Below, in pieces: positions 1 to 62,425 of a stretch of DNA of 64,000 nt. The notes under the pieces are model-generated. The model ran no database searches. It saw only the letters and a program-made list of their open reading frames with translations, and was not told where the DNA came from. The position numbers and the translations under genes were made by a program. The stretch is from the NCBI GenBank assembly GCA_000004985.1, contig GG738886.1; one strand, written 5' to 3'. The first letter of the stretch is position 1. Every line of letters starts with the position of its first letter. This DNA comes from Naegleria gruberi. Its lineage: Eukaryota.

Positions 1-252
1 TTTTACATACAAATGGTTTTAGATGATAGATACCAATTTGGATTTTGGTTGGAGAGTGGTCAAATAGGAGGAAATGAAAACACAATTTTCAATTTACCAT
101 CCTTTAACCAAAAATCTTTGAAAATTGATATGGTGGTGATAATGTGAATACATTAGAGTATAAATAATTAATTGTCAAGTTAAGGTGGAATGAATACTAT
201 GAAAGATTCAAGTGCAATTATCTATTAAAGACGCTTTGTGATAAAAGAAGAA

Positions 253-2404
253 TTAATATTGTGAATGTTTTAATTGTTTAATAAAGCAACAAATATTTAG
301 AATTGGTCCTTCGTGTAAACCTGCGTTTTTCAAGGTAACTTTGAGTGTTTCCTCTTCCACAGCCAAGAGAGATTCACTATTAAAGTCCTTTTCTTCCAAA
401 TATTGTAACAATAGTTTCAAATGATCTTCCCTTAGTTTCAAATGCTTGTTTTGGTGAGCTCGCTTTAAAAAAGTGGCAAGTTCCTTTTCATCCAAATTTG
501 AAAAGTCCACCACTTTATCTTCTTGTGTCTTTTGCTTTTTTGAACTTCCATAAGGTGAAATATGCTTATCTGATAACTCTTGAGACTTATGTTTAGAATC
601 AATACTTAAAAAGGTATTAGTATTTGTTACCCATTCTTGCAACAACATAAAATCTTCGGTCATTTCTAATAAATTCAAACCAGGGATAAGCTCTGGACTC
701 TTGTCTAATTGAAAAAGCAGGAAGTTAGAATTTTGCCTTAACAGCGTATTTACAGACTTTATATTCTTTCCAGAGAGTGCTAATGGCCAAACAGTCAAAA
801 ACAATGCAATACAAGGTGTGCAATGTGCTCTCTTTTTTTTGTTTGACTGGCTGTTGGCAGAGTTTAGGATACGATCAAAGAATATTTTTGCTTGAAGGGT
901 GGGTTCTTTCAAACAAGTAATTTGGACAACCAAGTGGAACTTTACCCATTGATTGTCAAAACCCAAGGCAGAATATGGTAAAATTAAATCTACACATGAA
1001 CTGTCCTCACCTCCATCCCTTGCCATCATTGGTCCTATCACATCAATATCCTCAGGTTGCCCTATGAATGAGGAATAATGTTTCTTGTTCGAATCAATTA
1101 TAATAGATGAGAATTTGTTCTTTTTTGATAATACGTTGGACATGGGCACTGAGGGTTGAGTACTGGTTAAGGAGCATAATTGCAAGCCAAATTTGTACAC
1201 TGTACCCTATGACTGCAACAGTACAACAGTTATTGAAAGTGTCAAGCCACTCCTTAGGGAAATACAAAGTGTTTTCTCTAATGTACCTTAATGTGAAATT
1301 ATCTGGAATTGCTAGTGTAATTGTATCATCTCTTTCCTGATTGATTCTAACCAATCCAGAATGGTTAAAAGGAAGGAGATATTGAATAACTTGATTTGAA
1401 GTACTACCAGTCAAAACACCATTTCCATCCTTTTTCAATCCAAAATCGTTTGGAAATGAAAAAATCATTACTAATTTTTCTAATAGTGCTTCATTTTCAA
1501 ATGATTGTTTTCCGATATTGAGAAGTTGTTCCAACATTTTCTTTTGTTTGGTCTTGTAGATGTAATAAGCACCATCAAGGGTATCTTGTAGCAGTTGTTT
1601 TGTAATAGGTTTTGACTGATTTCTTAATTCTTGTAAGAAGTAGAGTATGTTCTTTGGCGTTCCTGCCACTTCTTCTTCAATCTTGTTTTTAATTTCTTCT
1701 GATTGTTCGATCGTTTGGTTTTGCATTTTCAATTCTTCCCATTTTAATACATTATTCAACACCTTTTTAACTCGTTCTGCAGTAAATGGTGGCAAAGGAG
1801 GACAAGCAATAGATTGAAAATAACTCGTTCCGTTAATTTCGTCATTTCCTAAAGCAGTTGTTCCTGTAAGTATCATCTTTACATTATGCGAGCAAGGCAT
1901 TAAGGAAGAAAGAGTTTTAAAGAACTCTTGATTCATCACTAACTGACATTCGTCTAAATGAAGAAACAGAAATGAATATTTCCCTAATACTTTCTCCACA
2001 GTCAAAGATATCATTAAGAAAGGAGTTTCCAGTCCGTGTGGATTTCTAACCATAATTGATTTGTTTGTTTGGCTAAACTCTGATATACAATCCACAACTG
2101 AACCAAAAAACTGTCGCCACCTAACCTCAGAACGTCCAATGTATCCGGATATACTTGGATGTATTGTTACTTGATAAACATTAGTATAAATTTTTGAAAT
2201 ATTATTGATAATTGTTGTCTTTCCTGTGCCTGTCGGTTCAAAAAGAGTCATTATTTTAGCCTTGTTGTTATTGGGTGGTGGAGACTGTATGAACGATACA
2301 ATACTCTGCTCTACACTAGGGGATGGATCATAGAATGGAATTTCCTCAGCAGCAAGCTTCTTTTGCATATCATTCACTCCATCTTCCTTAAACAAATGTG
2401 CCAT
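253..2404 (-). CDS. P-loop NTPase of unknown family (AAA+/STAND-like); 2 exons join(2404..1206,1162..253)
   Basis: ORFs 1094..2404 and 253..1200 overlap in different frames and are joined by a 43-nt intron (GTACAG...CCAG; + coords 1163..1205). Splicing gives ...CCTVAVIG|TQPSVPMSNVLSKK... Walker A is LFEPTGTGKTTII and Walker B is FLFLHLDECQ. About 700 aa; the family was not recognised. Confidence 0.5.
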
Positions 2405-44079: not shown

Positions 44080-47000
44080 TTATTCGTAAACCTCAGCAAA
44101 GATAGTGTTGGAACGACCAAATATTTCTGGTGAGTACATTTCTTCACATTTGGTTGGTGGAATAATGAAGGATCCGATTTGAGTGGCACGACACAAATGT
44201 TTGAAAGTGTGAGTTCCTTCCCAGAGCAAACTGGAGAATGCTTCAACACGTTCATCTCTACTATTGACATGTTCATACCATGGATAGTTCCACCAACATC
44301 TAGATTTCTTAACTTCACCTGAAGGAGCGTTACCTTTCAATTCAGGATTAATTGGTTCCAAACCAGCAGGTAAAAAGTCAACCAAAGCAACATGATAACG
44401 TCTACTGGTATTAGTGAATGTAATGATAACTCTAACCAATTCACCAGCTTTAAATTTCCAACAGTTTCTTGCCTTATCAAATTGAGCATGAGATGGATCA
44501 GTAACACCCTCATAGCTTCTCTCAATTTGGAATCCATAATCAAGAGCTGGTAATAATAAATTCTTAGGAGCATAGTCCATTCCAATTCTATAGTACAATC
44601 TACCAGGACCTTCCTTCAAGATGGCCAATGTTTGTGCACCTTCAGTGGTAGTAAGTTGTCTCATTGGAATAGTAAGAACATTTTCATCCTTATTTCTTCC
44701 CTTGAAAACTTGTTCTCCACAATAATCTTCTCCAAGCCACATCTTGGCAGTGAAATCAGGAGTGACACCTTCAAAGACATGGAAATAACTGTTGAGAGCA
44801 AGAAGGATGAAAACATTTTCTTGAGTATTGCCCCATCTTCCCTTCTTCTTATGAGCTAAAAGTCCCTTGACAACCTTTGGAATGAGATTATTTTGTGGTA
44901 CCATATGAATGAGCATTTCCAAACAAATTCCATCAGTTCTTCTATCACTGTGCAACATGATAAGCTTGCTGCTTTGCTCATCTCCATAGCTTGTAACAAA
45001 GTTGGCTGTTTGAGCAGTTTCATTGACTCTCATTAAAATATAATTCACAATTTCAGTCGATTTTGTTGTGGCTTCCTTTCCATTGGCAAAGAACATTGCT
45101 GAAGCAGTCCAAGACAAAGTTTCAAGACAAGTATCCTTCAATCCACATTCTGAATATAATTGGTCAGCTTTTTGTTTGGCTCTTGAATCTCCCAATAGGG
45201 CGGCAACATAATAAGCATATGATCTAATGGCATATTTTGATGAAGGAGAGTAATATGTATCACGAATATAATTCTCAATATCACAGAGGAAATTAGTGAG
45301 TTTGGAAACAACATTATTATTGAGAGAATAACCTGCAATCTTGGCTCTAGCAAAGGCATGACCTACGTGGCAAGAAAGGTAAGGACTGACTGAATAATCA
45401 CTTCTGTAAGTCCACCATCCGAATCCACCATTTGGAAATTGTCTTCCATTCAAAATACCCAACGATAATTGTACAGTAGAGTTAAGCATAATTGAGCTTG
45501 GAATATCCTTGACCTTGAATGCTTGAAGTACATCCTTGAGAGCAACAATTGATAAAATCTTACTTGACAATTGTTCACAACATTCAAAGGAATAGTTGTA
45601 AACATAAAGGAAGGCATCAGTCAAGGCAGACAATGCTGTACTACTGGTAGTGATTTGTAAGCCACCAAATTGAGGATAGATATTTTCTGGAGCCTTAACT
45701 GGTTGGAATGTAGTGCAATCACCATCCAATTCACCATAATGAGCAAATGCTTCTGTGGTTGCTGGTGTGAATACTCTGAGTTCCTTTTCAACAGCATCAG
45801 AAAAGTTGATCAATTCGGAAACAGAAACAGCAACTTGGAATTTAGAAATACCAACCTTGGTTGCTTGCATTGGGAATCTCAATTCAGCTCTCTTAAGAGC
45901 AGGGATTTTAACATTCAAACCTCTCTTGGATGGATCCAACAATTCGAGTCCATCATAGGCAACAGCAATATGAACATTCAAATCAATAAGGGTTTGATTT
46001 TGTAAAACACAAGCAAATTCTGCCTTATCACCAAAGTTCAAAAATCTTGGAAGGGAAGGTCTAATTGCTAGTGGCAATTGTGCAACAATTGAAGATTCTC
46101 CCAAGCCGTACAAACTATCTAGTTTGGTAGAAACAGCTGTAATTCTGTATCTCGTCAAATTGTCAGGTAATTTGAATGGCACTCTGGCCTTGCCTTGAGC
46201 ATCTGTTACACATACTGGACTAAAGACAGCAACTGGATTGAAATTCTTTCTGACAACAATGGCAGATCCAACTTCCTCACCTCCTTCACATCCACCAGCA
46301 TCGTCATTACATTCTTCGCACTCTTTTTCCTCACATCTCTTTTTGGATTTCTTACAACTTTTCCTTTCTTGCACTTCTTCTTGGCAATCACAATCATCAT
46401 AACAACAACAGGAACGACATAAACATCCTTCACACTTGCAACATTCACATTCATCATCATCACATTCTTCCTCATCAGAACTATCTTCAGGAGGAGATTG
46501 AATGTTGATATTATCAAAACTCTTGACAAATACGTGGTCTCTCAATGAGAACTCTGAGAAGCTTTGGCCAGTACCAACTATGAATGTGCTCAAAGGATTA
46601 GATATTCTATAGCCAGTCAATGAAAGAACAGCTTCATCAACAGCAACGAGACAAACCTCACTTCCAGCTTGTGGTTTAGAGTTTTCCTTGTCAGTTACCA
46701 AAACATCAACAAAGGTCTCAACACCTGGAGTAACAAATTGCTTCTCTGGAGTGACCAATACATCGAGTTGATGCACTTTGGATGAGACACCAATATAACA
46801 AGTTCCATTTGCGTACGCAGGTTGTTTTGGGAGGTCGAGAGGTAATCCAAGAGAATCACTTCTTGATTCACTACCTTGGAGCATTACACTAACTGTTACA
46901 TTTGGAATGTGTTCTTTGGTAATTTTGAGAGTGAATTCAGTTGATCCAACTTCTGGATCAATGGTGATTGGAATATTATCGATTACAGAATTGAGGCAAA

Positions 47001-50000
47001 CAGTAACAACACCATTAGCCTTACCGTCGAATGGAGATTGAATCAAAATTTTGGCTTCTTCTCCAATTTCATACATTCCTTTGTCTGCAACCAAGAGGGC
47101 TTGTTGCTTTGAAAGTCTTGAACCAACAACATCCTTCTTTGATTTACCACCAGTTACGTATAGGGAGTTATTTGAAGAGTTAGTTAAACCGGTTTCTGTA
47201 TCCTTAATTCTCAATGTGAACTTGTAGTTACCACCCTTATCGAAACTAATAGGATATTTGACTGGTTCAGATTCAGACTTGAATACCTTCTTGAAAACTT
47301 CAACAGATTCATGAACAACACTGAACCCCTTCTTCTTTTCAACGGTTGTTGTAGCAACCAGTTCCATATCAATACCAGGAATAGTATTACCTTCAAGATC
47401 AGTGGTAACCATGAATAAATTGGTTTGAACATTTGGTTTAACAAACATCTTTTCAATCTTCATTCCACAATAATATTTGCAAGGGTGAACAGTAAATGTA
47501 GTGGAATCATTAATAGTTTGACGATTAATATCTTGAACCGATGTTTCAACAGTAATGTTCATTGGAGATTTCTCTTGTCTTTCGGTTTCATCGAAGAGGA
47601 TTGCAATTTCATGTTCACCATCAGAATTACAAACACCTTCAAATGTAACTGGTTTGTAATTTTCACTTCCATAAGTATCATAACACCAATAACGATAAAA
47701 TGGATTTGAGATGTAAGTGGAGAAGTTGAAACCAGAAAAGTTTGGTGGGGTATAACTTGTCTTTGATTGTTTGATAACATAGGAACACTTTGAACCAGAG
47801 AGACCTCCACCTGAGTAGTATGCTGCTTGGGTCTTGAGAATTGTTAAGTTATTAACAATATATCTGCATGGTGGGACAGATGTTGAGACTGTAAATTCTG
47901 GAGTACGGAACTCTTGTACATTAAAGTTTGTATGCATTGTCCTACCGTTGAACTCAATGGAATGAGAGCCCAAGTTAACATTGTCTGGAATTGAAAACTT
48001 AATATCAAAGGAACCATGTTCTGAGATGGTGTATTTTCCAGTGTGATATTTTGCACCTCTAGAATCTTTAACAATGTATTCATAAGTTCCCTTTTTTGGT
48101 AGAGTTGGAATAGTTCTTGATCCGTACTTTTCAACCTTGAGTTCTCTACAAATACCCTTGATGAAAATCTCTTCTCCAGGTTTATAGAGTCCTCTATCGT
48201 TGAAAATATTATATGCTAATCTATCATCAATTCTGTAGTGATAAAGGTATAAATCTGGAATAAAGCAGGTATCATTCAAATAAGATCCAATCAGTGTATA
48301 TTCACTTCCGTTTGAGGTGTGACTAAGAACAGCAATTCCTGTTTCAGAGTCTGGTTTTGTGCTAAATGATGGAAGGAATTTCTTTTGTTTGAAACTAACA
48401 TCAGATTTGATGACAGTTCCATCAATTAAAGAATTGGCCCAACAGTAAACATTACCTGTTCGTGTATCGAAAAAGCCATCCATTGCCATCTTTGTCACCT
48501 GAATCCAGGAAATGTAAACTGGTCTGTATTTCCAATTATCTTTCCAATGTGTTTTGGATGGTTCAACTGCAACCAAAAGTTGACCTAACATGTCATTTGG
48601 ATGTTGTAAGTATTGGGTCAAGTCAATTTCTGTATCAACTGGTTCATCTGGTTGACCATTGGTATTTACCATAGTGTCAAGAACTTTTTTTCCAGAAAGA
48701 GATAATGTTGCATTGGAATAAGCATCATAGTAGAAAACATTGTTTGAATAATCACCTGGTTTAACTTGATAAACTTGGACATGGATAGCTTCAAGATTTA
48801 CACTGAATACGGAGAAGGATGGTTTAGTATTGACAGTAGGATCAATAACCATCATTCCGGTCTTGTAGGCTTGTAAAGATTGAGCTGCTGGTCCAACTTG
48901 GAAAGTAAAGTTATTTTCTCCTGCAAGTTTTTGTCCCCAAACATCTGTTATTTGACCAGAGAGTTGAACTTGGTATGTGGTACGTCCCTTAATATTACCA
49001 GATATTGTCAAGTAATTTCCAGATGGATTAATACGTAATCTTTCAATAGGTGGTTGAATACTTATATGTTCCTCATTTAATAATTCAATATCAATATTAT
49101 TACTAAATGTGAAAGAGAATGGTTCCAATGGAAGCTTTCCACCAGTATGGGAAGTAACTTTGAATTCTGGATAGTTTGTAGCTGTGAAGGAAATATCTTT
49201 TTCTGTTCTCAAAGGACCTTCAATAGATCTGGCTCCTTGCAATAATGTTATAGCGAGGGTTTCTGACAGGGCTACTCTCCTACTTGCTACATCAATTTCA
49301 ATCCAAACATGTCTATTTGGAGCAGAATTTTCCAATTTGTAATTTACAGAATTGTACAATGAGGATGATCTCTTTTCCAATGAAGATTCTTTAAGCTTTC
49401 CTTCAATATAACTCTTTACAACTGAAGTACGGCCATCATTTTGAACCAGCTTGCAAGAGTATCCAGGTATATTTACACTAGAAAAGATTTGGTTTGGATC
49501 AATATCTTGATCAAACTCCATATAAACAAATGGAAATTCGTTAATTGGAACTGCATGGTAACTATTTGGAAGATAGTTGAGCATTGTCAATCTAGGTGTT
49601 TCAAATTTAAAGGAAACATTCTTATCCAATACTCCTCCAACACTAGACTTGGTTTTTTCACAATCAATAGTGACTGTGTATTCCGTAGACATGTCAAATC
49701 TATAATTTGGTTCAAAGAATAAAGTCTTTGCACCCATCCATCTAAATCTACCACCATTCTTTGGGAATGGTTCAATTTTTACAAAAGAAAAATCTTGATC
49801 ATGAACATCTTCAACACCAGACACAGCAACCATTGGCTGAGAGAATGTGATGGAAATATGTGGCACTGATCGATCAACTGGACCTTCTGGCAAATATCTC
49901 ACCACTGCCAAACTTGATCCCAACAATGCTTCTTCTTCCTTTCTCACTTGTTCTGGTTTTTCCAATTTCTCTTCTGGTGGGAATGGAATTTCATTAACAT

Positions 50001-50334
50001 CAGCACTTCTTGGAGGTTTGAGGGTTTTTTCTCTCATGAAAAAGTCACCTTCTTCTGATGTTGATTTTTGAATTTGTGGCAATCTGGCCAATAATTTCTC
50101 TGTCAATTCATCACCAAGAGATTCAACACTTGCACCACTCTTTTGATCCTCATCCTTCTTGACAGAAGTTGCCTTTGATCCAAGTAAAATCATGGCAGTA
50201 GAATCTTCAGGTGTTGGCTCCCTAACATGAATATTCAACCCAACAGTGTAATCTTCATTATTTGCACCAAGAATGCTTGTCTCACTGCAAGGTTCCTCCT
50301 CTTCATAATCCATATCATCATCATAAAACACCAT
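44080..50334 (-). CDS. Alpha-2-macroglobulin/thioester-containing protein family member, single exon about 2085 aa
   Basis: Thioester-like region NYSFECCEQLSSKILSIVAL (CxEQ in place of GCGEQ). The thioester-domain region FPNGGFGWWTYRSDYSVSPYLSCHVGHAFARAKIAG and the domain order fit the A2M family. The acidic N-terminus (MVFYDDDMDYEEEEP) has no signal peptide. Confidence 0.8.
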   Translation of the reverse strand: MVFYDDDMDYEEEEPCSETSILGANNEDYTVGLNIHVREPTPEDSTAMILLGSKATSVKKDEDQKSGASVESLGDELTEKLLARLPQIQKSTSEEGDFFMREKTLKPPRSADVNEIPFPPEEKLEKPEQVRKEEEALLGSSLAVVRYLPEGPVDRSVPHISITFSQPMVAVSGVEDVHDQDFSFVKIEPFPKNGGRFRWMGAKTLFFEPNYRFDMSTEYTVTIDCEKTKSSVGGVLDKNVSFKFETPRLTMLNYLPNSYHAVPINEFPFVYMEFDQDIDPNQIFSSVNIPGYSCKLVQNDGRTSVVKSYIEGKLKESSLEKRSSSLYNSVNYKLENSAPNRHVWIEIDVASRRVALSETLAITLLQGARSIEGPLRTEKDISFTATNYPEFKVTSHTGGKLPLEPFSFTFSNNIDIELLNEEHISIQPPIERLRINPSGNYLTISGNIKGRTTYQVQLSGQITDVWGQKLAGENNFTFQVGPAAQSLQAYKTGMMVIDPTVNTKPSFSVFSVNLEAIHVQVYQVKPGDYSNNVFYYDAYSNATLSLSGKKVLDTMVNTNGQPDEPVDTEIDLTQYLQHPNDMLGQLLVAVEPSKTHWKDNWKYRPVYISWIQVTKMAMDGFFDTRTGNVYCWANSLIDGTVIKSDVSFKQKKFLPSFSTKPDSETGIAVLSHTSNGSEYTLIGSYLNDTCFIPDLYLYHYRIDDRLAYNIFNDRGLYKPGEEIFIKGICRELKVEKYGSRTIPTLPKKGTYEYIVKDSRGAKYHTGKYTISEHGSFDIKFSIPDNVNLGSHSIEFNGRTMHTNFNVQEFRTPEFTVSTSVPPCRYIVNNLTILKTQAAYYSGGGLSGSKCSYVIKQSKTSYTPPNFSGFNFSTYISNPFYRYWCYDTYGSENYKPVTFEGVCNSDGEHEIAILFDETERQEKSPMNITVETSVQDINRQTINDSTTFTVHPCKYYCGMKIEKMFVKPNVQTNLFMVTTDLEGNTIPGIDMELVATTTVEKKKGFSVVHESVEVFKKVFKSESEPVKYPISFDKGGNYKFTLRIKDTETGLTNSSNNSLYVTGGKSKKDVVGSRLSKQQALLVADKGMYEIGEEAKILIQSPFDGKANGVVTVCLNSVIDNIPITIDPEVGSTEFTLKITKEHIPNVTVSVMLQGSESRSDSLGLPLDLPKQPAYANGTCYIGVSSKVHQLDVLVTPEKQFVTPGVETFVDVLVTDKENSKPQAGSEVCLVAVDEAVLSLTGYRISNPLSTFIVGTGQSFSEFSLRDHVFVKSFDNINIQSPPEDSSDEEECDDDECECCKCEGCLCRSCCCYDDCDCQEEVQERKSCKKSKKRCEEKECEECNDDAGGCEGGEEVGSAIVVRKNFNPVAVFSPVCVTDAQGKARVPFKLPDNLTRYRITAVSTKLDSLYGLGESSIVAQLPLAIRPSLPRFLNFGDKAEFACVLQNQTLIDLNVHIAVAYDGLELLDPSKRGLNVKIPALKRAELRFPMQATKVGISKFQVAVSVSELINFSDAVEKELRVFTPATTEAFAHYGELDGDCTTFQPVKAPENIYPQFGGLQITTSSTALSALTDAFLYVYNYSFECCEQLSSKILSIVALKDVLQAFKVKDIPSSIMLNSTVQLSLGILNGRQFPNGGFGWWTYRSDYSVSPYLSCHVGHAFARAKIAGYSLNNNVVSKLTNFLCDIENYIRDTYYSPSSKYAIRSYAYYVAALLGDSRAKQKADQLYSECGLKDTCLETLSWTASAMFFANGKEATTKSTEIVNYILMRVNETAQTANFVTSYGDEQSSKLIMLHSDRRTDGICLEMLIHMVPQNNLIPKVVKGLLAHKKKGRWGNTQENVFILLALNSYFHVFEGVTPDFTAKMWLGEDYCGEQVFKGRNKDENVLTIPMRQLTTTEGAQTLAILKEGPGRLYYRIGMDYAPKNLLLPALDYGFQIERSYEGVTDPSHAQFDKARNCWKFKAGELVRVIITFTNTSRRYHVALVDFLPAGLEPINPELKGNAPSGEVKKSRCWWNYPWYEHVNSRDERVEAFSSLLWEGTHTFKHLCRATQIGSFIIPPTKCEEMYSPEIFGRSNTIFAEVYE

Positions 50335-50573
50335 TTTCTCTCCTATTAAAATTAAATAAAAATTATAATTATCAATCAAAAGAATGTTGCTGTATTTTTT
50401 TTGATCTGTTGGGAGTTGGAGATCGGCACCTATTTTATGCCTGTTCGGATGAACTTGTGTGGATAAGGAGGCGAACAGGGAATCATTAAAAGGAAGAACA
50501 TAATGAGCATTTCAAGATGTAATAACTCTCATTGTGTGAATGGCACACTGAGAGTAATTGATGAACGAAAAAT

Positions 50574-53057: not shown

Positions 53058-54786
53058 GTGACTGTAATTTTGAGTGATTTCTTGTTGAGAGGAATGTCCT
53101 ATGATGATACTGATCATTTTCCTCAACAACATCGATGGCTAACAGGTAAATTCCAATCTCAAACCAAAGGGAAGCTTAAGTGGATGAAAAGAAGGGATGA
53201 ATTGTTTGAGAAACGTTCGTCATTCATTCCGATAGAATTTTGCCATGATAAGGAATTGGTTTTGCACATGTTTAAAACAATAGAAATAGATGCACATGTA
53301 TTTGATTGCATTCAAGCTGATGTGATAGACAATGATTTGCTTGTTAGAATTATGAATAGATTGAATGATAGTTCAGTTAGATCTGAAGCAATAGATAATT
53401 TTATAGAACTTTTCAAAAGGTATAATATTACCTTAGACGGAAATTCAAAGGAAGGAAAGGAATTTGTTTCAGCCTATGAGATGGAAAATGGCAAGTATGA
53501 AACAGCCTTAAAACTATTCATAGCAAGTGGGAACGTCTCTAATATATTAAGACAAGATGTTGATTTCATTTACGACGTATTTAAACATTTTAATGGAGAT
53601 GAAAGAATGTTACATATTGTACTTTATTTTTGTATGGCAGATAAGGATGCTTTGCTTAGGTTCGCAGAGATTAATCCACATGTGGTGGCTTGTGCATCAC
53701 AAGAATTTCAACAAGATGAGAACTTTCTTAGAGAACTCATTGATACGAACACTGACTATCTGAAACATTTAATATTTGCTACCGAACACGACAAGAATAG
53801 TGCAAAAGCAAAGAAATGCAGGGAAATATTATCAAATGATTCGTTGAGAAGAAAGATGGAGAATGACGAGAAGTTTATACTACATTATTGTGCTGTCGAT
53901 CCTGAACTTTTCAGGTTGATCTCTCCAAAATTACTAGTTGACAAGAAATTCTTATTCAACATATTGGAAAAGATAGAGAAATGCCCTTTTGCATTGTCTA
54001 CAGTTTTGAATCATATTCCAGAAGTCATGAAAAGCGATTTTGATATTATGTTAAAGGCAGTTAAGATAGATCCTATCTCTTTTATGCATGCTTCTGATCA
54101 GCTAATGCATGACCAAGAATTTGTATTGAAATGTCTTGGACGGTATTCTGATCTAATATTTCCAATGATTCCTAATGAATTCCTTCAAGATAGAGAATTC
54201 CTTATGGAGATGTTGGAAATAAATGGAAGCTTACTTGAGTATGCTCCTTCTGAATTCCAAGGTAAGTTAATAATATTACACATTCTAACAATGTTAAAAA
54301 GATGATGAAGAGATGGTTCTTCAAGCCTTAAAATCTGACGGTGGTTCAATTGATTTTGTCTCTACACGGCTTAAAAACGATAGAGATTTTCTATTAAAAG
54401 CCAAGAAGCAAACAAATCTATATGTGAACCTGCTATCGAGGGCTATTGTAAATGATGAATTCTTACTGGAATCATTAGAATCACCATTTGTGGATGATGT
54501 TTATGAAGAAATAGAAGCACGAGGCTTAAGGGACAATTATGACTTTATGAAAGAAGCCATAAAAAGAGTGTATAGTTACACTGAATTACCAGATAATTTT
54601 AAAGCGTTGAAGGAAATGTCATTATTGGCAATATCAGTTGATGGTAGAGAATTAAAGTATGTTCACCATAAGGATGACCTTGAGGTTCAAAAGGCTGCCG
54701 TGAACCAAAATGGATATTTCATTAAGCAATCACAAGAATTGTTGGACTATAGGTTAGAATGTGCATATTTTGGATGCAAGATTTGA
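53058..54786 (+). CDS. DUF4116-like repeat protein; join(53058..54261,54302..54786), with a possible 5' exon at 52858..53061
   Basis: Repeats such as FILHYCAVDPELFRLISPKLLVDKKFLFNILEK and LLEYAPSEFQ|DDEEMVLQALKSDGGSIDFVS. A 40-nt GTAAGT..AAAAAG intron (54262..54301) keeps the repeat periodicity. Confidence 0.55.
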
Positions 54787-55128: not shown

Positions 55129-56220
55129 ATGAAACCATTCACCACTTCTACTTCATCACTGGTATATTTAATGGTGATAAGTTGTGTGGCATGTTCATGC
55201 GTATGTATGATGGTTCATGCAGCCTCATCCACCTCTCAGTGCAGTAACATTACCATCCAGACTCATGTTGATGAGTTGGAGAGGGAAATTGCAGAGCTCA
55301 CATGTATTCAAAACAGACTCTCCAATGTCATCTCAGCCCTCAACATGAGTGCTTCAGTGAATGGCCAAATAATTAGAACAAGACAACGACAATTAGAAAA
55401 GATTTCCACTGCCTTATCCTTACTTGTTCAGGAGAGCACGTTCCTTAAGAATGTAACAAATCCAGTTTCTACTATTGTTTCAACAACTTCAAACATTGTC
55501 TCTACAAGTCAAGGGTTTATGTTTGGTGATGGAAGAAAAGCTCCTTCTTGTAGACAATACAGATATCCTGACTATCCATATCAATACGAAAATCAAGGAA
55601 GTGGACTCTATGTTATTGAGCCATCTCCAAATTTGATCATGGTTGTGTATTGCGATATGACTACTGATGGAGGAGGGTGGACACTTATTGCAGGTATTCG
55701 TTCTGATTATGAAGGCATTCACTATCACACATTTGAGGATTCAACAGCTATTTCAAGCTCGAATGTGACTTCGTTCCATATCAAGACACAAGCTCTGCTA
55801 GCCAACTCCACTCAAGTTAGAGCTGCCTCAGATGCAACTACAAATCCACAAACTGCTTTTTATACTTCCAATTGGCCATACAGTGCCTCTTGTACCATAA
55901 CCACTAGCTTGAGAAATGCCATCCAAAATACTCCAACAAGTGTTAATGGAGATTTACCAGCAAGTTGTAAGATCCTAACTGGATTGACTCAAGTTCCCAA
56001 TATTTTCACATATGGAAAAACATGTAATGGCCATTCGACAGGTTTTCGTTTGGGTTTCGCACATGGGAATTGTGTTGGACATTTGAGTGAATCAAGTTTT
56101 ACAACATTTTCTTTCAGTGGAGCTGCAGAAGGTGGTTTAAGCAGTGCAAGTACTGAAAAAGGTGTTTTTTATAGTTTTAATGGTGAAAAAAGCAGAAATG
56201 GAGCCATTTTTTTAAGATAA
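55129..56220 (+). CDS. Secreted fibrinogen-related-domain (FReD) protein with N-terminal coiled coil
   Basis: Signal peptide LVYLMVISCVACSCVCMMVHA and a heptad-rich segment. FReD core: SCRQY...GSGLYVIEPSPNLIMVVYCDMTTDGGGWTLIAGIRSDYEGIHYHTFEDS. Confidence 0.65.
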   Translation: MKPFTTSTSSLVYLMVISCVACSCVCMMVHAASSTSQCSNITIQTHVDELEREIAELTCIQNRLSNVISALNMSASVNGQIIRTRQRQLEKISTALSLLVQESTFLKNVTNPVSTIVSTTSNIVSTSQGFMFGDGRKAPSCRQYRYPDYPYQYENQGSGLYVIEPSPNLIMVVYCDMTTDGGGWTLIAGIRSDYEGIHYHTFEDSTAISSSNVTSFHIKTQALLANSTQVRAASDATTNPQTAFYTSNWPYSASCTITTSLRNAIQNTPTSVNGDLPASCKILTGLTQVPNIFTYGKTCNGHSTGFRLGFAHGNCVGHLSESSFTTFSFSGAAEGGLSSASTEKGVFYSFNGEKSRNGAIFLR

Positions 56221-56376: not shown

Positions 56377-58071
56377 ATGATTACTGACGGCAGTGATGAA
56401 GTAGTCGATCAATTTTGGTTCGGTATTGATTTTGGAAATTCCTTCATCAAAGTTTCAGCCAATGCTCCCGAATGTCCATTCGATTCCATTTCCGAAGAGA
56501 AAATTATTAAATTGTCAAATCATTTCAATTCCAGTATCGTTTGTATGATGGAATCGAACCTGACACGATTTGAATTAATTGGCTATGATGATAAAGCAGA
56601 TAATGAATTTATTGATTTTACAATTATTAATATTAAAAGATTAATTGATAATCTATCGGATGAAAATCAAATGAATGAAATTGAGATATTGGGAGTGGTA
56701 CAGACTGATAATGATGATGATAAGAGGTTTATTACTCAAATAGTAATGGAGAATGTGAAATTGAGATCGAGGGATGATTTGGAGAACTTGAACAAATTAG
56801 CTCTGATTAGGATTATGGATAGAAAAACAAATTCCTCAATTGAAATTCCACTTTTTACTGTTTTGTTAAAATTGTTTGAAAAATTGAGAAGGAAAATAGT
56901 TCAAAACAATGATTCAAAACTACTTTTATGTAATATTGCTACAATTCCAGTATTTTACAATGATTTACAAAATAATTTTGTTAAGGTTGCATTTGAAATG
57001 GCTGGATTTAAGGTGGAAAGAACCATTCGTGAAACGGTTGCTGCAGCAAGAGCATACGATTTTGAAAGCAAAACAGAAAGAGACATGTTGGTTCTCGATT
57101 GTGGAGCTACCAAGACTATGCTCTCACTATATCATGTAGATGAAGGAGTTTATGAACTATTGGAATTTATTTCAGATAGCAGTGTTTCAGGAAATTCGAT
57201 AGATGAAGCACTGGTTGACTATTGTGAATTGGAGTTTAAAAAGAAAACAAAAAAGATACTTGACAATCAGAACGCACGAAAAAGACTTCGTGAGGCATGT
57301 AAGATGGCTAAAGAGAAATTAAATAGTGATAGCACACCTCTCAATGTTTCAATACATGTTGATTCATTGATGGATGGAGTTGATTTCTCTATAATACTAA
57401 GCAAACCAAAGTTTGAGCAAATCATTACACCAACATTGTCAAAGATAGCATCCTTATTGAATTCCTTTTTAGAATCTAGAACCATCCATTCTATTAATGA
57501 TTTGATATTATGTGGGGCAAGCAGCCAAATCTCAAAATTTACATCAGTAATTAGAGAATTTTTCAAATCCAATCAGCAGTTCGTGGTTCACGATAGCATT
57601 CCTCCAAAAACTATCAATGCAAGAGGTGCTGCTTCATTCTGTGAACTATTCAGAGTTGAACAAAGTTATTGGGTTAATGCAGTATTATCACTTAGTATTG
57701 GGATTGAACATGAGAGGAAAATGTTTATTTTAGCAGATAGAAATACCTATCTCCCATTCCAAAAATCATTCATTATCGAAAAGAAGGTCAACCCTGCCAC
57801 CAATCAATACCACTTTAAACTTTATATGGGTGAAAGAGCTATACCGAGTAATAATTTATTTATGGGAGAGGTTTGCATTCCTAATAGTCAATGTGATAAT
57901 ACCAATATCAAACAATTCAAATTAGATGTAATCATATCAGAAAATGAAATTCTCTTCCTCTCCATTCATGATAACTTACAAGAGTATCATTTCCAAGCAG
58001 ATTGGACCCATCTCACTCGAGAATTAGTTGAGCAGAGTATTCAATTAGGTCACCTGGATAAATCATCATAA
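56377..58071 (+). CDS. Divergent Hsp70-like (actin-fold ATPase superfamily) protein with degenerate nucleotide-binding motifs
   Basis: Colinear with the Hsp70 nucleotide-binding domain. FGIDFGNSFIKVSA corresponds to IGIDLGTTYSCV. IPVFYNDLQNNFVKVAFEMAGFKVERTIRETVAAARAYDF corresponds to VPAYFND.QRQATKDAG.IAGL.V.RIINEPTAAA. LDCGATKT corresponds to DLGGGTFD. LCGASSQISKFTSVIREFF corresponds to GGSTRIP.VQ..L..FF. Confidence 0.7.
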   Translation: MITDGSDEVVDQFWFGIDFGNSFIKVSANAPECPFDSISEEKIIKLSNHFNSSIVCMMESNLTRFELIGYDDKADNEFIDFTIINIKRLIDNLSDENQMNEIEILGVVQTDNDDDKRFITQIVMENVKLRSRDDLENLNKLALIRIMDRKTNSSIEIPLFTVLLKLFEKLRRKIVQNNDSKLLLCNIATIPVFYNDLQNNFVKVAFEMAGFKVERTIRETVAAARAYDFESKTERDMLVLDCGATKTMLSLYHVDEGVYELLEFISDSSVSGNSIDEALVDYCELEFKKKTKKILDNQNARKRLREACKMAKEKLNSDSTPLNVSIHVDSLMDGVDFSIILSKPKFEQIITPTLSKIASLLNSFLESRTIHSINDLILCGASSQISKFTSVIREFFKSNQQFVVHDSIPPKTINARGAASFCELFRVEQSYWVNAVLSLSIGIEHERKMFILADRNTYLPFQKSFIIEKKVNPATNQYHFKLYMGERAIPSNNLFMGEVCIPNSQCDNTNIKQFKLDVIISENEILFLSIHDNLQEYHFQADWTHLTRELVEQSIQLGHLDKSS

Positions 58072-58329: not shown

Positions 58330-59582
58330 ATGTCCCTCTTACCCTTTTCCCTCTTTCACGATCACACGGAAAGCATTGATTATTTTCACCAGCCATTCTT
58401 TACAGATGTTCCAAAACACTTGGTCCATAAATTTGGAAAAATCAAATTTATTCTCTGTAGAGAATCGAGCTGCTATGTAGTATCGGAACATGATGAATTA
58501 TTTGTTCGTTCATCAGCTCATCATCTTTGGGAGAGACATGTGTTGGATTTTAAATGGCCTAACGAAAGAATTGTTAAAATCAGTGCAAGTTATCATGCCT
58601 GTGTATTATTGTTACAATCTGGAAATAGAAATGTGAGAGTATTTGCATGTCAAACAAATGATTATGGAAGTGATTATGTATTTGGAGAACAGAGAGGAAA
58701 TGTTACTGTAAATGTAGAGCTAGTAAATGATGAATCTAGTTGGAATACTAAAGTTTGGTATAGAGTTGAAGATTTCGATTCATTATTGAAGGATGGAGAA
58801 TATATTACCAATATATCATGTGCTGCTTTCACATGTTGTTTCATAACTTCTCATGGAAGATTATTGGCGTGTGGATGTAATCAATTTGCTGAAATAGCTC
58901 AACCAAAACAAAATACTTCTAATTATAATATTGCTAAAATTCAAGAATGTTGCTTTGATCCTAATAATGAGTGCAAAAAACCATTCTTTGTTAAAACAGT
59001 GAACGGAGATCACAATATCATTGCCCTGACAAAGGATCACGATATATTCTATTGTGGATATACTATGGATTACAATGGTCAAGATTTACCAGTTATGAGA
59101 CAATTGGGTAGAATTCCTCAAATGGAAGATAATGAACACTTTATTGATATATCTGCAACATATTATGAAAAGTTATATTTAACAAGTAGGTTTTTATTGA
59201 TCTATTTCAATCTAATGTATTGCAATAATTGTAATTGAAATAACAAGACAAATTCAATTTATATAAGGACAATGCATTCTATTGCCACCTTCCAGAAGTG
59301 ATTGGTGAGAATGTTTTTTCATGCCAAATGAGCGCTTCAAGTTCAGGATATATCTTGGTGATTAACAATTCCATGGTTTATTCTTTGGACAGTAGTGCAT
59401 TAAATCTCATACATACAGTTGAAAAACCAAGACCATTTCAAACTCTTTGCTCAACCACATCCCAATGTTCGATTATTTATTGGGAATATTCTACAGAGTC
59501 CAAGAATTTAAAGGAGCTACGAGAAAATTTCAAACATAGGGCAAGGGATGGTTTACTTTCAGATCTTTTAATTACCATTTAA
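58330..59582 (+). CDS. RCC1-like repeat protein, 2 exons (approx 58330..59185 and 59296..59582)
   Basis: RCC1-type repeats (ITNISCAAFTCCFITSHGRLLACGCNQFAEIAQP; DHNIIALTKDHDIFYCGYTMDYNGQ). An intron of about 110 nt is inferred and the acceptor is ambiguous. Confidence 0.4.
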
Positions 59583-60667: not shown

Positions 60668-62425
60668 TTAATTTGAATTTCCTTTTAGAACTTGAGAGAG
60701 TTCAATAATTTCTGGTGATACTTGTAGCCGATGGGAAACATACTCCAAGGCATTATAATCCCTCTTCATTGCTTCAATGACAATTTCAGCACAATCCCTC
60801 ATTTCATTGGAGGCATACTTTAGGGCTAGACCATCATTTTGCACTGCCTTCATGACAACCTCGAATGTATTTCTCCACTCAAAGCTTGCAAATCTGAGAG
60901 CATATCCTTCAGAATTAACGGCTTCCATGATAATGTCTCTATTAGAAATTGTCTCTTCTGTGTCGTGTGTTGTTGGCTTACTTCTGTACTCTGTATTCAC
61001 ATATTCCAACATGGAGCCTTGTCGTTTCACTAATGCCAAAACAACCTCTCTGTCTTTCATCAATTCGGGGGATATATAATTGAACGAATTAGGATTAATT
61101 TCAATAAATCTCAATACAAAGGATTTGCAAGATCTTAGTCTTTCAGAGGCAAAAGTAATATTTTGGGACAGTAATACAAGTTCTTCATCTTCTCCCCAAT
61201 GTATGATAATGTCTGGATCTCTTGCTTTGTATAGGCATCCAAATGCAGTTGGATCTTGGCTAACAGCCGTCATAACAATTTCTCTATCTCGTTTGAGGTC
61301 ATCACTCGCTAAAATAAGATTATGCCCATAATTTCTAACAGCTTGCAATACAATCTCTCTATCATCCCAAAAATCTGGGGCATAGTTGAGTGATTCTCCA
61401 CGATTGGAAACAGCTTACAGTACCAAATCTCTGTTTTGCTTCAAGTCATCATGCAAGTATTGTAGTGACGAGCCAAATGACGAAACTGCTAATAATCCAA
61501 ATTCTAAAGTACCTCTAATTCTCTCTGAAAATTCCTTAATGCACATTCCATCTAATGGAAGAACTATCCTTGCCAGAGAATCATTATCTCGTAATTTTTC
61601 AGAGACCACCTTTATCACTGCAGGATGTTTCTGGGCAACTATCTGTACAATTTCTAAATCATTATTATACATATCCACAAGATATTTGAAAATAGCTGGA
61701 TTTCTTCTAACACATTTCAAAATGAAACCCCTATTCGATTTAATTTCCTTTGAAATAAAAGCAAACGGCTCTGAATCTTTCTTTATCACAAATGTAATAC
61801 TCTTATAGAGCGAACTTTTCAAGCTCATTAAATTCAAAAAATCCAAATTATTTACAGCACTATCCTTAAACATATCCTTCCTAAATCTCAAAATCCAATA
61901 CTTGAAATGTTCAAATTGCTTTCTCCAAGAAACCATTGAATCACACATTGCTATTCCATCTCCAATCGTCCACACCAACTTTCCTTCCGAATTGACTTGA
62001 CTCGTCCACTCTTCAACTGGCCATAAACTTTTACTGGGATGAAACTCTTTAATTGCCTCTTGTTTCCTCTCATGCTTTGATGGCACAATAAACAATTTGA
62101 AAAACTCTTGAGCATATAATGAATCAATTCCCATCACCTCCATTGTTTCGTTCAATTTTTCATCCTCATCTTCCAAAGTCAAATTATTGTATTTCCTTCT
62201 CTCCATTCGTTGTATGAGGAATGAATTAATAATCAGGAGCCAATTCCTAAATTCTCTCTTCTCCACCTGAATGGCCAAGTATTGAAAAAGCCTACAAGAA
62301 AGTGCAAAGCTTCTCCTCGACCTATCATCTAGAAATTCAATTATACTCTGAATCAATTCGGAAGGTAAATTGTTTACCATCTCAATCATCATTGTATTAT
62401 TATTAGCACTAACGAGTAGAGACAT
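60668..62425 (-). CDS. F-box + DUF4116-like repeat protein interrupted by a single in-frame TAA (61415..61417); possible pseudogene or readthrough
   Basis: N-terminal F-box LPSELIQSIIEFLDDRSRRSFALSCRLFQYLA. Downstream repeats continue in the same frame across the stop: ...LKQNRDLVL*AVSNRGESLNYAPDFWDDREIVLQAVRNYGHNLILASDDLKRDREIVMTAV... The candidate 49-nt intron there would break the repeat frame. Confidence 0.5.

Follow-up and report, generated by a model that had tools for sequence, protein, structure and literature searches.

Does a protein that is built like an Hsp70, and whose ATP-binding motifs are altered, still work through the Hsp70 ATP cycle? The question is raised by a gene at 56377..58071 (+ strand, as are all of its features given below) in a 64,000-nucleotide stretch of DNA from Naegleria gruberi (NCBI GenBank assembly GCA_000004985.1, contig GG738886.1; this whole stretch is called the window), for which an original prediction, made from the sequence alone, had proposed a non-ATPase Hsp70 paralogue with systematically degenerate ATP-binding motifs. 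Here, we describe the fold, nucleotide site, paralogue and distribution of this Hsp70-like protein and conclude, with a probability that we put at roughly 0.6, that it is a lineage-restricted, fast-evolving atypical Hsp70, no longer coupled to the canonical ATP cycle, that works through its conserved substrate-binding beta-sandwich (SBD-beta), either as a holdase or by partnering canonical Hsp70. In the canonical cycle, J-protein-stimulated ATP hydrolysis closes the lid over bound substrate, and in DnaK and Hsc70 nucleotide state is coupled to substrate trapping by the phosphate-2 loop, adenosine contacts, Arg155, interdomain linker and lid. Because these coupling elements are altered or absent in the Naegleria protein, and because nucleotide-site residues drift between it and its paralogue, operation of that cycle is unlikely; the original prediction that this is an Hsp70 paralogue unlikely to serve as a standard chaperone agrees with the altered nucleotide motifs, linker and lid.

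The gene is complete and single-exon in the open reading frame (ORF) listing, running from an ATG in an A-rich context to a stop codon at 58069-58071 and encoding 564 aa; the probability of meeting no stop over 564 codons at the given base composition is ~2e-19. Its product is identical, at 100% identity over 100% length, to the N. gruberi "predicted protein" NAEGRDRAFT_70803 (XP_002674074.1; UniProt D2VPC2), so the window is nuclear N. gruberi DNA and the intronless ORF is itself the gene model. The protein has a single paralogue, NAEGRDRAFT_71748 (569 aa, 61-63% identical). The gene is thus real and intact, already in public databases and unnamed there; searches by identifier found no paper or supplement naming either gene, and general searches gave no survey of Naegleria Hsp70s. 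The window is AT-rich (G+C ~33% throughout), the gene has the same G+C content (32%) as the surrounding genome, and 259 bp separate its stop from the start of the downstream gene. On direct reading of the sequence, neither end of the protein shows an evident targeting signal (no signal peptide, no presequence, no HDEL), which points to the cytosol. Two small ORFs that overlap the gene in other frames (56909..57139, + strand; 57267..57572, - strand) are a chance product of AT-rich coding sequence.

Sequence and structure searches agree on an Hsp70 fold. Residues 166-534, and only these, match the Pfam family PF00012 (HSP70) with E=5e-47 and 160.8 bits (cut-off 20.6), and in a phmmer search of the PDB sequences bovine Hsc70(1-554) comes first (E=6e-38; query residues 180-533 on Hsc70 136-493), the best sequence matches being Hsc70, HSP70A and HSPA1A. 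Both kinds of local alignment stop N-terminally at about residue 166-180. Profile-profile alignment with hhalign (query profile: the protein and its paralogue; target profile: 18 canonical Hsp70s) places residues 15-560 colinear with HSPA8 3-519 at 100% probability; with colinearity from residue 15, the divergent N-terminus is still homologous to lobe I of the nucleotide-binding domain (NBD). The colinearity with the Hsp70 NBD that had been read from the sequence is borne out by the Pfam and hhalign results. In Foldseek, the top matches to the AlphaFold2 model are all Hsp70s (E ~1e-35), the best PDB entries being lid-truncated BiP, Hsc70(1-554) and DnaK at 22-23% identity. The model itself (mean predicted local distance difference test score, pLDDT, 74; predicted template modelling score 0.68) is confident in subdomains IIA and IIB, in a beta-sandwich at residues 441-542 (pLDDT mostly 80-92) and in a terminal helix at 548-563.

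The resulting architecture begins with an actin-like NBD whose lobe I is expanded; a non-canonical linker leads to SBD-beta and the equivalent of lid helix A, and there the protein stops. Compared with Hsc70, ~40 residues of lobe I are extra or unalignable. The subdomain IB region has an expanded and divergent part at residues 92-136 (56650..56784), where an insertion of ~25 aa relative to canonical Hsp70 appears as a gap in both hhalign and mafft. In phmmer, mafft and hhalign alike, the interdomain linker region reads SYWVNAVLS (residues 430-438; 57664..57690) in place of the canonical DLLLLDVTP, so that the DLLLLD element becomes SYWVNA. It had been claimed that the protein has no canonical substrate-binding domain, and this proved wrong: by alignment and in the AlphaFold model, SBD-beta is present at residues 439-545 (57691..58011; AlphaFold strands 441-542), aligns to Hsc70 399-507 and keeps the Hsp70 signatures LS(I/L)GIE, RNTxLP and YxGER, with loop L1,2 altered to HERK. 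It is followed by a single C-terminal helix, LTRELVEQSIQLGHLDKSS (residues 546-564; 58012..58068), which corresponds to lid helix A and is aligned to Hsc70 LSKEDIERMVQEAEKY by mafft and hhalign. The protein ends ...LDKSS after this helix, without the lid helices B-E, the disordered tail or the EEVD motif, whose absence had been noted correctly.

Within the NBD, the nucleotide site combines kept and substituted positions. Residues are numbered here as in Hsc70, and column conservation was taken from 45 canonical Hsp70/DnaK sequences; the reference sequences were checked, HSPA8, HSPA14 and SSE1 each matching a database entry exactly and SSZ1 matching PDB 7x3k_B without a difference. The strings DFGNS (residues 18-22), LDCGATKT (240-247) and CGASSQISKF (379-388), on which the original prediction was built, are present and lie opposite the Hsc70 motifs for phosphate 1, phosphate 2 and adenosine, respectively. 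Misalignment as the source of the odd motifs was rejected, as phmmer, mafft and hhalign give identical residue-to-Hsc70 placement, so the three altered strings are real substitutions. LDCGATKT had been matched to the right element, DLGGGTFD, with the pairing shifted by one residue (L240 corresponds to F198, and D241 to D199).

The phosphate-1 motif GIDFGNSFI (residues 16-24; 56422..56448) keeps D10 (D18) and G12 (G20) and carries T13N, T14S and Y15F; it is the same in the paralogue, and Asn at the T13 position is also found in Sse1 and Ssz1. Catalytic Lys71 is K87 within NIKRLI (residues 85-90; 56629..56646; AKRLIG in Hsc70), a placement on which mafft and hhalign concur and which is conserved in the paralogue. 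The stretch TIPVFYNDLQNN (residues 189-200; 56941..56976) keeps the Pro147 switch, N151 and D152 and has Asn for Arg155 (DnaK R151), a column that is Arg in 44 of the 45 canonical sequences and Leu in the paralogue. In RTIRETVAAARAY (residues 215-227; 57019..57057), R171 and catalytic E175 (E219) are kept and P176 is replaced by Thr; the paralogue has Asp at E175. The degenerate phosphate-2 motif LVLDCGATKTM (residues 238-248; 57088..57120) keeps D199 (D241) and G201 and carries G202A, G203T, T204K and D206M; the paralogue reads LILNCGSTCTI, with Asn at D199. In the 45 canonical sequences, the five columns that have changed here do not vary; G202, G203, T204 and D206 are among them.

On the adenosine side, the subdomain IIB helix CKMAKEKLN (residues 308-316; 57298..57324) keeps K271 and carries E268K, R272E and S275N (Tyr in the paralogue); in crystal structures of the Hsc70 NBD with nucleotide, this helix contacts ribose and adenine. 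The adenosine motif LILCGASSQISKF (residues 376-388; 57502..57540) keeps G338 and shows G339A, T341S, R342Q and P344S, and IPPKTINARGAA (residues 408-419; 57598..57633), which aligns to Hsc70 INPDEAVAYGAA, has Lys for D366. The adenosine pocket thus shows charge reversals or losses at four positions (E268K, S275N, R342Q and D366K), E268K and D366K being the reversals.

The start region, the unusual blocks of lobe I and the C-terminal LDKSS all recur in the paralogue; over the unusual N-terminal region, the two proteins are 54% identical and share long identical blocks. The extra active-site changes of the paralogue are E175D, D199N, T204C and S275Y, and of the 15 conserved contact columns considered below, 6 differ between the two proteins, which is about the background rate. 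The best-conserved stretch between them is the C-terminal helix (58012..58068; 79% identity). An allele of the paralogue, differing at 2 of 569 residues (E183K, I409F), was found at positions 57..1766 of a metagenome contig (ENA assembly ERZ929261, run ERR1078381, contig k127_346519; L001 in our listing), which indicates that an N. gruberi-like amoeba was present in that sample. The ratio of nonsynonymous to synonymous substitution rates (dN/dS; Nei-Gojobori method), computed between the gene and the paralogue DNA of this contig, is 0.21 overall, at a dS of ~1.2 that is near saturation; the regional values are 0.32 (residues 1-180), 0.21 (residues 181-430) and, lowest, 0.12 (substrate-binding domain). 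These low values indicate that selection maintains both genes, with the strongest constraint on the binding domain, and that they are a functional pair under purifying selection, not pseudogenes.

If the protein is indeed uncoupled from the ATP cycle, it would no longer go through J-protein-stimulated hydrolysis and lid closure. The constrained SBD-beta would bind a client or partner protein by a peptide segment, with fast on and off kinetics, and nucleotide, if any is bound, would be static. The role would then be that of a holdase, or of a partner or regulator of canonical Hsp70, by analogy with Ssz1/HSPA14 or Hsp110. The C-terminal helix, to judge from its sequence, could be a partner-binding element in place of the lid and EEVD.

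Several observations weigh against this uncoupled, holdase-or-partner reading. The residues with the closest ties to hydrolysis, D10, K71, E175 and D199, are all four present, and G12, G201, K271 and G338 are kept with them, so that the earlier claim that every ATP-binding motif is systematically degenerate is right in that the motifs are altered and overstated in its extent. Among 15 nucleotide and magnesium contact columns that are near-invariant (>=90%) in canonical sequences, the protein keeps 9 and the paralogue 7; HSPA14 and Sse1 also keep 9 and Ssz1 keeps 10, which puts the Naegleria protein level with the first two and near the third. The contact columns are not degraded beyond the other 40 conserved NBD columns (60% vs 55% kept; Fisher p=0.77), so the "systematic" motif loss is indistinguishable from general divergence and carries no specific signature of active-site loss. 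In the AlphaFold2 model, two segments of lobe I (residues 30-82 and 96-129) have pLDDT below 50. Bound ATP is required by Sse1, and Ssz1, which does bind ATP, can dispense with its hydrolysis; a degenerate phosphate-2 loop alone is therefore no proof of lost nucleotide binding, and the Naegleria protein may still bind nucleotide and even hydrolyse it slowly. The non-ATPase proposal is consequently no more than plausible: the coupling elements are altered, and the catalytic residues are kept, with a contact count like that of Sse1 and HSPA14.

Taken further, these points would make the protein a functional Hsp70 chaperone that goes on hydrolysing ATP in spite of its unusual motifs, in which the lidless substrate-binding domain would give fast substrate exchange and the nucleotide cycle would be intact. 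P147, N151, D152 and R171 are kept beside the four catalytic residues, Sse1 and Ssz1, which bind ATP, have the DxGN variant of the phosphate-1 motif too, purifying selection acts on the gene, and DCGATKT is compatible with DxGxxxT, the loose pattern of the actin/Hsp70/sugar-kinase fold. We nevertheless consider an active chaperone unlikely: the five invariant columns that have changed lie in the phosphate-2 loop or among the adenine contacts, the charge of the adenosine pocket is reversed by E268K and D366K, and both Arg155 and the DLLLLD linker, which serve interdomain allostery in DnaK and Hsc70, are lost. The sister copy, moreover, carries E175D and D199N, and substitutions at these two positions strongly lower the turnover number (kcat) of Hsc70.

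The remodelled adenosine pocket (T204K, E268K, D366K, S275N/Y and R342Q) can also be read as that of a pseudoenzyme class with the Hsp70 fold, made up of the pair, that no longer binds adenine nucleotide, which we regard as improbable. A pocket that is permanently empty or holds some other anionic ligand, with SBD-beta and the C-terminal helix providing Naegleria-specific, nucleotide-independent scaffolding or client holding, is a doubtful proposition to the same degree.

The uncoupled atypical Hsp70 that we favour would be confined to one lineage. A word-indexed search of 5.8 billion proteins returned the N. gruberi pair only, with no orthologue from N. fowleri or Willaertia. As a positive control, the neighbouring PWP2/Utp12 gene found its orthologues in N. 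fowleri (83%) and Willaertia magna (70%) in the same database, so the missing orthologues of the Hsp70-like pair are meaningful, though unannotated genes may still exist in those genomes. When 1.84 billion cluster representatives were searched exhaustively with a profile, the query itself scored 1182 bits and the next match at most 221 bits (a fused canonical Hsp70); the top non-self matches that were inspected are tandem-fused or ordinary canonical cytosolic Hsp70s, and among the matches listed besides the query none covers query positions 1-75 and few begin before 150. No relative was found in IMG/VR, and the JGI metagenomes gave only canonical-type matches at 25-26% identity. On these searches, the pair appears restricted to the N. 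gruberi lineage. Some of the top non-self matches (P0122-P0125 and P0128) are 750-1200-aa proteins with two tandem canonical Hsp70 copies, whose double match inflates their scores; they probably come from other eukaryotes in which tandem hsp70 genes have been fused into one gene model.

As to ancestry, blastp scores are highest for HSPA8 (151 bits), followed by a canonical-type Hsp70 (P0003; 140), BiP (131), DnaK (123), an Ssz1-like fungal protein (108), HSPA14 (106), Ssz1 (74) and Sse1 (65, the lowest reference). Compared with HSPA8 in the same way, the known outliers score 317 (HSPA14), 246 (Sse1) and 213 bits (Ssz1); at 151 bits, the Naegleria protein is therefore the most divergent, without a specific ally among them. 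It has no DnaK-type insertion in subdomain IIB, and the eukaryotic motif DSLxDGxDF is present as DSLMDGVDF. With Hsc70, HSP70A and HSPA1A as best matches, with scores falling from HSPA8 to BiP to DnaK and with no DnaK-type insertion, the protein is probably derived from a eukaryotic Hsp70 of the cytosolic/ER type. In a neighbour-joining tree, the pair sits on a long branch and joins other long-branch sequences at 31% bootstrap, a grouping with the outliers from which we read no relationship. Membership in Hsp110, Ssz1 or HSPA14 is not supported by the blastp scores, the Foldseek identities or the tree; HSPA14 and Hsp110, to which the original prediction had pointed, are by the same comparisons not the closest relatives.

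These results bear directly on the idea that the protein is the Naegleria counterpart of Ssz1 (fungi)/HSPA14 (animals), the lid-truncated, hydrolysis-inactive ribosome-associated complex (RAC) subunit that partners zuotin/MPP11 at the ribosome. The general architecture is the same (~510-560 aa; NBD and SBD-beta without lid or EEVD), 9-10 of the 15 contacts are kept in all of them with a loss equal to that of HSPA14, the Asn at T13 is common to Ssz1, and there is a local resemblance to HSPA14 around the adenosine motif, in LCG(A/G)SS(Q/R)I(S/P)K and SIPP. A RAC subunit is quite unlikely all the same, since HSPA14, the Ssz1-like protein and Ssz1 all score well below HSPA8, structural identity to Ssz1 is 16% vs 22-23% to canonical Hsp70, and the tree joins long branches at 31% support only. 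RAC subunits are broadly conserved, and if the protein were such a ribosomal partner, N. fowleri and Willaertia should have orthologues of it; the searches found none there, or anywhere outside N. gruberi. The pattern of losses is also reversed: HSPA14 and Ssz1 lack D10 and K71 or D199 and keep S275, G339, P344 and D366, and the Naegleria protein does the opposite.

Very improbable, finally, is a decaying duplicate, or an acquisition from a giant virus or another foreign source, without a cellular role, which the extreme divergence from canonical Hsp70, the absence of sister-taxon orthologues and the poorly modelled lobe I would fit, but against which stand two intact ORFs (564 and 569 codons) with conserved start and end points, dN/dS of ~0.2 with dS >1, the long identical N-terminal blocks and a G+C content like that of the genome; a viral origin, with no IMG/VR relative and giant-virus Hsp70s at most 21% identical in structural alignment, has no support.

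The neighbouring genes of the window are unrelated to Hsp70, as expected in a eukaryote, and include DUF4116-repeat, fibrinogen-C-like, RCC1-like and bacterial-type alpha-2-macroglobulin ORFs. Directly upstream of the Hsp70-like gene, 55129..56220 (+) encodes a 363-aa protein whose N-terminus is hydrophobic and of which a short segment, residues 154-188 only, matches the fibrinogen C-terminal globular domain (E=6e-6). Downstream lies an RCC1-repeat-like ORF at 58330..59238 (+), followed 60 bp on by a same-strand ORF at 59298..59582 (+); the two may be exons of one gene. DUF4116-repeat ORFs flank the Hsp70-like gene on both sides, at 53058..54305 (+), 54313..54786 (+), 60668..61348 (-) and 61415..62425 (-); the first two, adjacent and in the same direction, may be one gene, and the last also has an F-box. 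A 2099-aa ORF at 44080..50379 (-) encodes a bacterial-type alpha-2-macroglobulin (Big_5, MG2, A2M bait region, A2M and bacterial MG10, the last at E=1e-29) and is, on its domain content, a candidate bacterial-origin gene in Naegleria nuclear DNA.

Set beside known systems, the uncoupled atypical Hsp70 proposed here falls within an 'extremely diverse repertoire' of eukaryotic Hsp70 derivatives, many of them uncharacterised (PMC13580251). For Ssz1/HSPA14, the working model is that of a non-cycling Hsp70 which partners a canonical one (PMC13580251). Hsc70/HSPA8 is the best match in both sequence and structure, at 29% identity, and is colinear through NBD, linker, SBD-beta and helix A; D10, K71, E175, D199, P147, R171 and the signatures LSxGIE, RNTxxP and YxGER are common to both. 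Unlike canonical Hsp70s, in which the three nucleotide motifs read DLGTT, DLGGGTFD and GGSTRIP, the Naegleria protein has DFGNS, DCGATKTM and GASSQIS, and it is without Arg155, the DLLLLD linker, lid helices B-E and EEVD. With Sse1 it has in common T13N and the replacement of G202, G203, T204 and D206, and the E175D of Sse1 recurs in the paralogue; the linker of Hsp110 is likewise non-canonical (PMC13580251). Hsp110 differs in having a long lid, insertions in the substrate-binding domain (693 aa) and intact E268, S275, G339, R342, P344 and D366, the Hsp110/Grp170 class having ~700-900 aa, and Hsp110/Sse1 is the least similar of the references (65 bits; 15-16% structural identity). All three outliers, HSPA14, Sse1 and Ssz1, keep S275, G339, P344 and D366, which the Naegleria protein loses.

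Other reduced Hsp70s differ in other ways. HSPA13 (STCH) consists of the NBD only, its substrate-binding domain being wholly missing (PMC13580251), whereas the Naegleria protein has SBD-beta. No HSPA12-like protein is among the inspected top matches of the exhaustive search, an HSPA12 reference sequence not having been compared. Closterovirus HSP70h is similar in its Hsp70 fold, its size of ~550-600 aa and its reduced C-terminal domain, and unlike in its 12-14% structural-alignment identity. In other Discoba, the trypanosomatid-specific, non-canonical HSP70-related proteins HRP1-5, for which ATPase-independent roles have been proposed (PMC4943205), are likewise lineage-specific Hsp70 paralogues with degenerate Hsp70 domains, a likeness drawn from their description; they are not among the best matches of the exhaustive search, which thus gives no sign of orthology. 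The gene opens no long-standing question; if characterised, it would show which features of Hsp70 are dispensable once the fold is put to a use other than the ATP cycle. The Naegleria gene is another instance of the known lineage-specific atypical Hsp70s, not a new kind of system, and its combination is an unusual one, in which the catalytic residues and the peptide-binding sandwich are kept and the adenosine contacts have been lost together with the allosteric linker and the lid.

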